A stretch of 64,000 nucleotides of DNA from Candidatus Latescibacterota bacterium (GTDB lineage: Bacteria; Latescibacterota; UBA2968): the NCBI GenBank assembly GCA_965205975.1, contig OZ242195.1, positions 2,880,001 to 2,944,000 of the forward strand, given 5' to 3'. The notes beneath the pieces are model-generated. The model saw nothing but the letters and a program-made list of their open reading frames with translations. It did not search any database and was not told the DNA's origin. Below are positions 22,782 to 30,656 of this stretch, piece after piece (the first letter of the stretch is position 1; each line of letters opens with the position of its first letter). Both the position numbers and the translations under genes were made by a program.

Positions 22782-25700
22782 ATGTTTGAAACCGGAACGA
22801 TTCTCGACAACAAATACCAAATCCAGACACATCTCGGAACCGGGGGCATGGGGGAAGTGTATCGGGTGTTGGACCTGGAGCAAGGCCAGGACTGCGCGCT
22901 CAAAATTTTGAATACCATGGTGGATAAGAAGGCGGTACATCGCCGCTTTCGCAGAGAATTTCAAGTATTGAACCGATTCCAGCACCCGCGCCTGATCCGC
23001 ACATACACCTGGGGCTTTGCCGAAGATCGCCCCTATTTTACAATGGAATATTTGCCCGGAAAGACATTGGAAAAAATAATTACCGATCATGCATATTTGG
23101 GACAATTCCGGGCGTCTCACTTTTTCGATTTAATACAACAACTTGCCGAAGGATTGGCTTATGTCCACGCGCAGGGTGCGGTGCATCGCGATCTCAAACC
23201 ATCCAATATTATGGTTTTGGAAACGGAAGAGGGGATTGAGACCACGATCCTGGACCTGGGGCTGGCGAAATTTAGGCACCTACATAGCGTTTCCATTACG
23301 CAGACAGGCGCAACGATTGGCACGGCAGAATATATGTCGCCAGAGCAGGGTAAGGGTTTGTGGGTGGACCATCGGTCAGATCTGTACTCATTGGGTGTGG
23401 TTTTATACGAGATGCTCACAGACACACCACCTTTTTCTGGACAAAATCCAATATCTGTTATTATGAAGCATATTCGAGAATCCCCGCCACCAATGGGCGA
23501 AGTCAATATCGAGATTTCTGAACAGACGCAACAAATTGTGTTGAAATTGCTGGCAAAAGAGCCTGTTGATCGTTATCAGTCGGCAGAGGAATTGTTGCAG
23601 ACCTTAAATGATGTGGCACCATCGAAGCTTGTGCTATCCGATGACGAGCAGCGCGATGTGCATAGAAAAGTTATGCGCCCGCAATTTGTCGGGCGTGAAT
23701 CCGAAATGAAGATGTTGCGCACGATGTTACGGGATGTACAGACTGGTGAGCAGCGCGTGGTTCTGATCTCCGGTGAGTCTGGTGTGGGAAAAACGAGACT
23801 TATTGAGGAACTATTGGGCGATGCGCTAATCCATGACTTTCTGTGTCTGAAAGGCGCGAGTCAGGAAGAAGGTGGACAAATATACGGTGCGTTGATCAGC
23901 GCTTTTCAAGGGAAGGTGGATTTGGTGACAGAGTTACCCGACCCTGCAGAATCGGACAAGTTTTCTGTTATGGAGCGCTGGTTGCAGTTACTAAAAAATC
24001 TGCGACAGCAACAGCCCATTGTGTTGTGTTTGGAAGATATTCAATGGCTTGATGAATTGACCCTGGAATTTTTGCAGTATATATTGCGCGACCCAGAACC
24101 GTGCCCGTTTTTGTTGTGCTTGACCTGTCAATGGTCTAATCTGGAACCGCTTTCAGAGGAAATTGGAAATTTTATACACAGCAATACATTTGCAGTGGCA
24201 ACCCGGATTCAGTTGAAGAATCTACCGCGAGAAGAAGTGGGGTATTTAGCGGCGTCGATGTTGGGCGAGCGATCTATACCGCGAGATGCCTTACAAACCC
24301 TGTTCAGAGAAACGGGCGGGCAACCCCTATTTGTCGTAGAGGCGGTGCGGACACTGGTAAATGCCGATGTGGTTCGACAGAATGTGTCCGGCGATTGGCA
24401 ATGGGGAGAATTTCCCGAAACATTATTATCCGATGATATTTCAGAGATTCTGCACAGGCGCATAGCAACCCTACCTGCTATGCAACAGAGGGTACTGGAA
24501 TATGCCTGTGTTTTTCTGAATGATTTTTCTTTCGACTTATTGGCAGCGGTTTGGCGCGGTGATGAGTTGGAACTGTTAGATGTGCTGGATGACCTAATTG
24601 CAGAAGGACTTTTGACAGCTTGTGGAGAAGATGAAGATCAATATCGATTTTCGCAGGAGTTGTGTCGGCGTACAATTTACGGCCGCCTGCAAGATGTGCG
24701 GCGGCGTCTGTTACATCGAGAAATTGGCAATGCTCTGGAAGAGACGGGTGATGCAGAAGAACTGACAGAAGAATTAGCGGATCATTTCGCGGCGGCAGAA
24801 GAACGAGATAAAGCAATAAAATATATGCGTCTATCAGGCAAAAAAGCATTGGAAAAACACGCTTATCGCCAGGCAAGGATGCGGTTTGAGGCCGTGCGAG
24901 ACTGGGCAGCGGATGACGCTTTTGAATCACAAGCAGATGCCATCGATTTTTTGTGCGATTATGCAAACGTTTTACGCTGTTGTAGTCAGCACAATAACGC
25001 ACTGGAACTTTTAGACGAGGCACAGGCGTTATTGCCCGATGATCGGAACGATTTGAAGGCGCGTATTTTGTGGAATGAAGGCATTATTCACAGCGTACTG
25101 CAACATGGGGGAATAGCAGAAAAATATATGCTGGAGGCATTGCGGCTTTATCGGGAGATGGATGATCTCGACGGAGAAATTCAGGCGTTAAGGAGTTTGG
25201 CTTATTTGTGCGATGTATCTGGGCGACACAAAGAAGCTATTGCATATATGCGTCGAGAAATGGCGAAATATGCTATGCTGGGAGACACCCAAAACAAGGC
25301 TATTGTACGAGTGCGAGAAGGTATGGTTGCATTGGTGGCATTTCGATTTGAGACAGCCAAAGTGCATTTGGAAGCTACTGTAAGAATATCTCAACAACCT
25401 GGACTTGAACACCATCGCATTGGAGCACTCAATTTACTTCAAAGAGTTTATTTTTTTCGGAGTGATCTCAACCGTGCAGAAGCCGTTTGCCACGAAGCCA
25501 TTGGCGAGGGGCGAAAACGAGGCGATGCGTACTGGGAAGCAGTAAATTTTCTCTATTTGGGAGAATTGGCTCTGGAAGGCGGTGATTTTTCAGAAGCATT
25601 GGAATATGCCAAGATTTCGGCAGAGCAATTTTTGCAAACACCGCGAAAAGATTATGTCTATCGCGCTTATGCGATTGCGGCAACGGCTGCTGCAAAAATG

Positions 25701-29741: not shown

Positions 29742-30656
29742 GTGCAAAAGCGCGCGTACCGCGTGGCAAATAGCGAATTGCCCGTCAACATCAGTGGAGA
29801 AACTGGCACGGGTAAGGAACTGCTCGCCCGTTATGTTCACGGCATTAGCCACCGCAACAGGGGACCATTTGTAACTGTTGACTGTGGCATACTCTCTTCT
29901 GAAATGTCGCGCAGCGAGTTATTTGGACACGTTCGAGGTGCTTTTACCGGCGCCAGCGAAACGCGCACCGGACTGGTTGAATCTGCCCGGGGCGGTACAC
30001 TATTCCTCGATGAAGTGGGCGAATTGCCAGCCAACCTTCAGTTGCAATTGCTACGCCTGGTACAGGAACAGGAATTTCGCCGCGTAGGCGAAGCATCCAT
30101 GCGCCGGTCCGACGTGCGCCTGATCACTGCGACACACTGTAACTTGCGAAAAATGGTGCGAAAAGGGACTTTCCGAGAAGATCTCTATTACCGCTTAACT
30201 GTCGTACCTCTACATTTGCCACCCTTGCGGAAGCGACTGAGCGACTTGCCTCTTTTAATCACGCATTTTTGCAAAAGTATGAAAGAATACAATCGCGCAT
30301 TTTCCCCCGAAGTAATTCAAAGGATGTCGCGTTATGCATGGCCTGGCAATGTTCGGGAACTACAACACGAAGTTGCCCGATTGATGGTCATGGCCGAAGG
30401 TAAAATTATCCGAGTATCCGACCTGCGCCCCCGCATTCGAGGGGCAAACGCCGAGGTTGATGTCTTTGACCTCCCGTTTAAGGAAGCCAGACAACTGGCG
30501 AACAGCCGGTTTATGCGAGAGTATCTTCACAGAGCTTTGCAGAGAACACAGGGCAATGTAACCCAAGCAGCGCAACAATGCGGCATTGGCCGACAGTATT
30601 TCCAGTTGCGTATGTCCGAATACGGTCTAAAGTCGGCATCTTACAAACAAAAATAA
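29742..30656 (+). CDS. Sigma54-dependent activator lacking a sensor domain (AAA+ and Fis HTH only)
   Basis: GETGTGKE, ELFGHVRGAFTGA, LFLDEVGE, FREDLYYRL, WPGNVREL, GNVTQAAQQCG; frame open upstream only to a stop at 29664. Confidence 0.9.
   Translation: MQKRAYRVANSELPVNISGETGTGKELLARYVHGISHRNRGPFVTVDCGILSSEMSRSELFGHVRGAFTGASETRTGLVESARGGTLFLDEVGELPANLQLQLLRLVQEQEFRRVGEASMRRSDVRLITATHCNLRKMVRKGTFREDLYYRLTVVPLHLPPLRKRLSDLPLLITHFCKSMKEYNRAFSPEVIQRMSRYAWPGNVRELQHEVARLMVMAEGKIIRVSDLRPRIRGANAEVDVFDLPFKEARQLANSRFMREYLHRALQRTQGNVTQAAQQCGIGRQYFQLRMSEYGLKSASYKQK

Follow-up and report, generated by a model that had tools for sequence, protein, structure and literature searches.

What kind of system is formed when a giant regulator gene, a short open reading frame (ORF) and a radical S-adenosylmethionine (rSAM) enzyme gene follow one another in an uncultured Latescibacterota bacterium? 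Such a locus lies in the 64,000-nucleotide stretch of contig OZ242195.1 (positions 2,880,001 to 2,944,000) that was analysed here as a whole and is called the window (G000:C1:2880001-2944000, where G000 is the 5.56-Mb source genome). The sequence-only reading of this stretch had proposed a locus for a peptide made by ribosomes and modified after translation (RiPP), bracketed by two sigma-54 activators. Every element that it named was found where it had been placed. Comparison of genomes delimited a unit of three genes and 6.8 kb, which encode an activator with kinase, STAND, tetratricopeptide repeat (TPR), GAF and sigma-54 modules, a precursor peptide with one Cys and a CteB-like rSAM enzyme. 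The best explanation overall, which we consider probable, is a mobile three-gene RiPP cassette under sigma-54 control. Its features, in window coordinates, are as follows (RRE, RiPP recognition element; HTH, helix-turn-helix; IHF, integration host factor).

22782..27602, plus strand: giant activator, 1606 aa, assigned by Pfam, with motifs kept in 36 aligned copies
Activator domains (Pfam, residues): Pkinase 12-273, AAA_16 301-440, MalT-like TPR 798-993, GAF 1134-1269, Sigma54_activat 1299-1464, HTH_8 1563-1602
27615..27632, no strand: dyad 1, predicted enhancer site; position kept, sequence type tracks HTH type
27637..27654, no strand: dyad 2, predicted enhancer site, by sequence comparison
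27673..27685, plus strand: IHF-like site flanked by dyads 2 and 3, differing from the consensus at one position
27718..27735, no strand: dyad 3, predicted enhancer site, by sequence comparison
27798..27830, plus strand: predicted intrinsic terminator of the activator gene, fold z -2.1, directly upstream of the sigma-54 promoter
27847..27860, plus strand: sigma-54 -24/-12 promoter motif, chance about 0.01 per 312 nt
27904..27910, plus strand: Shine-Dalgarno sequence of the precursor, kept in the alignment
27916..28095, plus strand: 59-aa precursor with an RRE-type leader motif (residues 5-12) and a single Cys33
Precursor regions: hypervariable residues 34-39, conserved Pro-rich residues 40-46, acidic tail
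28092..29555, plus strand: RRE-rSAM-SPASM maturase, CteB-like, likely start ATG near 28125

The source genome contains three copies of the activator, precursor and rSAM genes. The stretch common to them corresponds to window positions 22763-29554, with 83–84% nucleotide identity; in one of them, copy C, the activator is frameshifted. The unit thus recurs at several chromosomal sites. An empty site was found in genome G009, where an ABC permease gene stands directly before the gene of a second activator (see below). The rSAM enzyme and the giant activator were both present in 15 of 20 related genomes of the same genus and both missing from the same five. Among 168 genomes of the phylum, the enzyme was found in 17/30, 4/22 and 2/3 members of three families of one class, and the remaining 112 genomes gave a single match, 30% identical. 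In protein searches the family reached down to about 39% identity, followed by a drop to SCIFF maturases at about 30%. A single 90% cluster of 469 members takes in most of the genus's rSAM copies, while the activator forms at least 120 clusters at 79–89% identity; by these counts, the sensor diversifies faster than the enzyme.

No protease gene is present in this copy of the cassette, as the sequence-only reading had noted. We found no description of the cassette in the literature searched, which was mainly open-access; the family might be listed in the supplementary datasets of rSAM enzymes and precursors that accompany PMC10288494 and PMC12710340. What the pertinent part of PMC12993501 gives for sponge Latescibacterota is limited to antiSMASH labels ('ranthipeptide' and RRE calls), and the relevant passages of 10.64898/2026.08.03.742642, PMC7470986 and PMC12316311 do not describe the cassette. 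RNA contigs from related strains covered the precursor and rSAM genes in three of four runs (none in X2), and one X4 contig spans both genes and continues into another; these data are contigs, whose depth cannot rank genes and in which DNA is possibly present, and they are not counted as evidence.

The precursor constitutes an undescribed peptide family in one group of uncultured marine bacteria. The strong Shine-Dalgarno sequence and the 59-aa ORF recognized earlier are both kept: all 44 loci that have upstream DNA encode a precursor, with a Cys in the same alignment column in every one (32 with one Cys, 12 with an extra Cys elsewhere). The precursor of genome G077 is frameshifted, and locus L041 is an rSAM fragment with no precursor. 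In 33 loci of the same-genus type, the ratio of nonsynonymous to synonymous polymorphism (pN/pS) was 0 at the Cys (pS 0.92) and low in the leader motif (0.21), the Pro-rich stretch (0.17) and the tail (0.29), but reached 0.98 in the six positions that follow the Cys, values that indicate purifying selection on the peptide. These 33 loci encode 29 distinct cores; the core is 14 residues long in 32 of the loci, and Cys is immediately preceded by GG, GS or GA in 18. The leader motif resembles SCIFF leaders and the HIxxI RRE motif (described in part of PMC12710340). Searches with the precursor returned nothing better than E 1 in PDB and no meaningful NCBIfam match for 36 members. Among 1.84 billion representatives the profile matched 26 proteins: 21 short family-like peptides and five long repeat proteins, which were judged spurious after inspection of one of the five. 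Neither the precursor nor the enzyme passes any NCBIfam cut-off, in line with the earlier impression of an unrecognized family.

The maturase gives weak Pfam matches to PqqD, Radical_SAM and SPASM, and its N-terminal RRE is supported by an RRE profile match. The seven SPASM Cys residues are invariant in 45 sequences, as in CteB, which is also the best solved relative (E 1e-57, versus 2e-16 for the anaerobic sulfatase-maturating enzyme, anSME; Foldseek TM 0.71). In a quick tree (43 rows) the family forms one clade, support 100, outside the SCIFF clade; it likewise stands outside the sulfatase maturases. NCBIfam scores stayed below cut-off for TIGR03974 (SCIFF, 261 bits against 425), TIGR03906 (QhpD, 252 against 453), NF047865 (PapB, 220 against 340) and TIGR03942 (anaerobic sulfatase maturase, 112 against 349). 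Identity as a sulfatase maturase, which would have spoken against a RiPP locus, was rejected given the TIGR03942 score, the N-terminal RRE and the adjacent precursor.

As in ranthipeptide systems, an RRE-containing rSAM-SPASM maturase related to CteB, QhpD and PapB stands beside a ribosomal precursor with a conserved Cys. With SCIFF/thermocellin (CteA-CteB, PDB 5WGG/5WHY) the system shares the enzyme fold with its seven-Cys SPASM and a short upstream precursor whose basic-hydrophobic leader motif is of the HIxxI kind (PMC12710340, in part). It differs in having one precursor Cys instead of six, a separate enzyme clade, Ser in place of CteB His363, a Pro-rich core with an acidic tail, and sigma-54 control. 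The ranthisynthases QhpD and PapB (freyrasin) score similarly, and their Cys-to-acidic-residue thioether is a candidate reaction here; a QhpE-like protease gene near copy C adds to the likeness with QhpD. Unlike theirs, the precursor has no CX3D repeats, and no amine dehydrogenase gene was present among the neighbours of the 120 representatives scanned. The cassette thus appears to work like a ranthipeptide system, yet falls outside SCIFF, QhpD and anSME. By these comparisons the enzyme most likely cross-links the precursor, with a thioether as the best guess for its product (known ranthipeptide linkages are treated in parts of PMC10114670 and PMC8326336).

Between the activator and precursor genes lie three dyads, two exact copies and one with two mismatches, followed by the -24/-12 motif, all of which had been pointed out earlier and stand far above chance. 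Elsewhere in the genome only four further sites occur within three mismatches, both exact copies being found here, and this is the only -24/-12 motif of the genome with three such dyads upstream. The motif, GGYAY-N5-TTGC, separates activator and precursor at 37 of 37 loci scored (39 loci, two dropped since the HTH pattern failed), and precursor and maturase form a conserved pair behind this candidate promoter; rpoN is present in the genome. The spacing of the dyads is kept across loci and their sequence tracks the recognition helix of the activator. Base 3 is C beside GLQ helices (39/40 left and 39/40 right half-sites) and T beside GLH or GLY helices (27/27). This match points to the adjacent giant protein, with its variable helix, over the single-copy second activator, and the sigma-54 promoter is most likely driven by the former. 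Missed by the sequence-only reading was a terminator with kept stem and variable loop at 31/31 same-genus loci, predicted to end the activator transcript just before the promoter and so to insulate it. The IHF-like site had likewise been missed; an exact match occurs somewhere in the spacer at 19/31 loci, a weak sign since the region is AT-rich. Sites for IHF and sigma-54 were called with consensus motifs. Counts from sigma-70 and terminator scans were at chance level and were set aside.

The giant activator is 1606 aa long when counted from the ATG common to related genomes (the frame is open from 22602). All domains proposed for it earlier were matched by Pfam, and the full layout is a Ser/Thr kinase, a STAND-type AAA_16 NTPase, TPR, GAF, a sigma-54 AAA+ module and a Fis-type HTH. 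The TPR region consists of about ten 40-residue repeats, modelled as a TPR superhelix (pLDDT 88). GAFTGA is present in 36/36 aligned giant activators, and both activators of the window carry the hallmarks of sigma-54 enhancer-binding proteins (AAA+ with GAFTGA, Walker A/B, HTH). NifA, NorR and FhlA share the GAF-AAA+-HTH output, GAFTGA and upstream dyad sites; the giant activator is longer than they are by about 1100 residues at its N terminus (kinase, STAND, TPR), and all these matches are below cut-offs. The TOMM system kinase/cyclase fusion protein (TIGR03903) likewise joins kinase, STAND and TPR modules in one protein and is linked with a RiPP system, its best stretch matching residues 357-839 with 290 bits, below the cut-off of 706; unlike the present protein, it has no sigma-54 module and serves another RiPP class. 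Giant activators with no precursor also occur (L090-L096, L101, L102), with sigma-54 motifs before genes for TPR-rich, leucine-rich repeat (LRR) or other secreted-type proteins, and several of these loci share a conserved leader sequence after the promoter.

Two further features follow the cassette.

29589..29629, plus strand: hairpin with a T-rich tail, z -2.7, belonging to the resident site
29742..30656, plus strand: sensor-less sigma-54 activator, assigned by Pfam, a resident single-copy gene

This terminator and activator had been correctly described, and what the comparison did not support was their inclusion in one system bracketed by two activators. The second activator is single-copy in 19/20 related genomes, including four of the five that have no cassette; it is near only 12/31 same-genus cassette loci and is the next gene in 8/38 loci. 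The hairpin upstream of it is also present in cassette-less genomes G001 and G009. Because the gene is a single-copy resident that also occurs in cassette-free genomes, with its hairpin kept at cassette-less sites, we place it outside the moving unit, apparently as an older resident in front of which the cassette sits at this one site. Against its full independence, an orthologue of the second activator (52–53%) comes directly after an older giant paralogue and its sigma-54 motif in three genomes of another genus (G025, G032 and G039), beside the same LdhH gene. The frame of the second activator is open from 29667, and its start codon is uncertain because an A-run differs among related genomes.

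A sequence of steps can be proposed for the cassette. The STAND/TPR region would be triggered, upon which the giant protein would very probably bind the three dyads that follow its gene, thereby opening the sigma-54 promoter. The precursor leader would, with the same high likelihood, dock on the RRE of the enzyme. The Cys would then bind the open auxiliary cluster and, as we think probable, form a thioether to a carbon in the Pro-rich stretch or in the Asp/Asn that lies 14–15 residues on, so that the hypervariable loop would be enclosed in a ring. Genes elsewhere might finish the product, and here our proposal is tentative: one for a methyltransferase linked to the cassette, together with proteases and exporters of general function (C39, CAAX or QhpE-like). 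What results would most likely be a strain-variable signal or identity peptide, heading a variable operon of surface or secreted functions.

Several observations weigh against this proposal, in which chemistry, transcription and signal role are all predicted. Over the six positions that follow the Cys, none of Asp, Glu, Thr and Asn is conserved, and the acidic tail is absent from the precursors of the other genus. Within the genus, GLQ helices are confined to a single insertion-site clade, and in the other genus a GLQ helix stands beside T, so that the helix-dyad match amounts to a handful of independent events. Cassette-less genomes, too, have proteases and exporters. Finally, the six CteB catalytic-site residues listed in the part of PMC10288494 concerned (Phe112, Phe152, Thr186, Ser210, His363, Gln364) were compared by eye in alignments: three are matched in this copy (F135, F175, S233) and three differ, namely V209 (Thr or Ala in related genomes), S383 and S384. 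The His363 and Gln364 positions are Ser-Ser/Ala across the family, His363 being Ser in 13/13 family rows.

These active-site changes mean that the reaction may differ from that of CteB. The same regulation could then serve another chemistry: an alpha-thioether, Cys oxidation (formylglycine-like) or preparation of the peptide for glycosylation. The His-to-Ser change lies in the loop after an auxiliary-cluster Cys, the precursor has no conserved acceptor residue, an RRE-GT9-type fusion occurs in three loci and GT4 genes lie beside the enzyme in deeper relatives; alpha-thioethers are made by two ranthisynthase-like enzymes, according to part of PMC10288494. We nevertheless consider a different chemistry unlikely, given the three matching site residues and an RRE and seven-Cys SPASM pattern that agree with CteB over anSME (TIGR03974 and TIGR03942 scores above), and no glycosyltransferase is kept in this copy. 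The second alternative concerns the resident activator, which the giant protein might transcribe by read-through, the sensor-less protein then amplifying or spreading the signal in a two-step cascade. The consecutive genes of the other genus would suit such a cascade, as would genome G029, where the orthologue follows another sigma-54 activator. However, a conserved hairpin with a T-rich tail separates the rSAM gene from the second activator here, other genes intervene in 4/12 loci, and the second activator persists in four genomes in which no giant activator was found; a cascade is thus doubtful in our estimation.

The remaining alternative, which the sequence-only reading had raised as a possibility for the TPR/GAF region, is a matched receptor-ligand loop, in which the modified peptide would bind its own activator in the TPR groove, turning it on or off and producing strain-specific signal types. 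Within the activator, variation peaks at residues 801-900 (68.5% identity, versus 75–89% in other parts). Across 28 loci this window also had the strongest co-variation with the core among the 16 compared (partial r 0.31, p 0.001), and it holds 84/985 variable columns and 12 of the 30 most core-linked ones. In the predicted model each repeat carries its variable positions largely on the first helix, the side that faces the groove. No co-variation with the core was found for the GAF region or the rSAM windows. A distinctive TPR allele is common to copy B and L007, which occupy different sites and have similar cores; against this, the core type is the same in copy C, where that allele is missing, and the precursor-less L102 has the allele. 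The TPR-core signal falls to p 0.06–0.11 after collapse of one six-member clade, and a kinase window scores as well. Of 13 rSAM-less activators, 12 keep the promoter and none has a precursor-like ORF, which departs from the constant linkage of regulator and peptide in peptide quorum sensing; in the other genus the giant activator is present in 13/13 genomes and the enzyme in 3/13. A quick tree suggests that precursor and rSAM genes were lost repeatedly while the activator stayed. RRNPP/Rgg regulators next to rSAM RiPPs (streptide; PMC8326336, in part) also place a TPR superhelix regulator beside a peptide-rSAM operon, and fold matches of our TPR model include Rap-pheromone complexes (TM 0.55–0.61). 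The match is generic, though, with LGN, OGT and others ranking higher by E-value, and output here is via sigma-54. A loop of this kind is quite unlikely in our judgement. We regard as similarly improbable its boldest form, in which an NLR-like (STAND-TPR) sigma-54 activator of sponge-associated Latescibacterota would read a self-made rSAM-cyclised peptide, loop and groove co-diversifying into strain-specific signals, the ancestral product having been a glycosylated thioether peptide (RRE-tethered glycosyltransferase, dead rSAM partner).

The preferred reading, a mobile cassette under sigma-54 control, leaves the surroundings of the cassette to be described. In deeper relatives the rSAM gene is followed by a gene for a second RRE-rSAM-SPASM protein, sister to the family (support 99) and devoid of CxxxCxxC in 7/8 cases, and then by a GT4 glycosyltransferase gene. 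Three loci insert an RRE-glycosyltransferase fusion (RRE profile E about 1e-10), in which GT9 was scored in two and the G077 copy has no Pfam match; RRE fusions to PF00535 glycosyltransferases are reported in passages of PMC12710340 that do not mention GT9. A methyltransferase (Methyltransf_24-like, Atlas 0.96; family on 16–89% of cluster members) is the next gene in 13/38 loci and was present in 14/16 cassette carriers and 0/5 non-carriers of the genus. Beside this larger, presumably ancestral cluster and the methyltransferase of other loci, the window has a reduced form. Genes downstream otherwise vary, encoding glycosyltransferases, TPR, LRR and Sel1 proteins and peptidases.

Candidates for dedicated processing and export were rejected: the QhpE-like/TIGR04066 fusion is found in 4/5 cassette-less related genomes and missing from two carriers, C39 exporters are present in 20/20 related genomes, and the upstream GntR-ABC operon is present at the empty site in G009. 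This operon (window 19812-22560) encodes a GntR regulator, an ABC ATPase and a 490-aa membrane protein with no family match; related genomes often have duplicated permeases and a CAAX protease at this position. Past copy B (G000:C1:2800080-2807812, minus strand) lie a methyltransferase, two glycosyltransferases and three small ORFs (73, 78 and 126 aa) with double-glycine-like leaders, two of them with a Cys right after Gly and acidic tails. A CAAX-like protease, a C39 exporter and an HlyD-like gene follow, named from their sequences only; the small ORFs may represent a further peptide system within that operon. Past copy C (G000:C1:3079633-3084518) are a DUF354 protein, a UDP-sugar dehydrogenase, an acyl carrier protein-like gene and the QhpE-like S8 protease with its fused TIGR04066-like domain, a fusion that is multi-copy in these genomes. 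Downstream of the cassette in genome G037 (L206:14292-17353) are ThiF-like and nitroreductase genes of the azole-peptide type.

Unrelated to the cassette, loci L141, L143, L240, L243 and L251 contain clusters of two to four tandem rSAM-SPASM genes, three of them with short Cys-containing ORFs bearing a C-x(0-1)-SWP motif. Within the window, positions 30758-34024 encode an Endonuclease-Q-like PHP domain fused to a UvrD-type helicase, and positions 55029-60284 encode a 1751-aa fusion of DEAD/Helicase_C and UvrD helicase domains.

The cassette offers a natural library: the family provides 29 different cores for one enzyme that stays about 90% identical, which allows a direct test for a single-Cys macrocyclase that tolerates varied cores and whose active-site loop is altered. 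An uncharacterised kinase-STAND-TPR sigma-54 activator is tied to defined DNA sites and a promoter, so that its input becomes testable as well. The RRE-GT9-type fusion and the dead rSAM protein of the relatives point to unexplored tailoring. Should the activator indeed read its own peptide, STAND-type sensing would be joined with peptide signalling in these bacteria.

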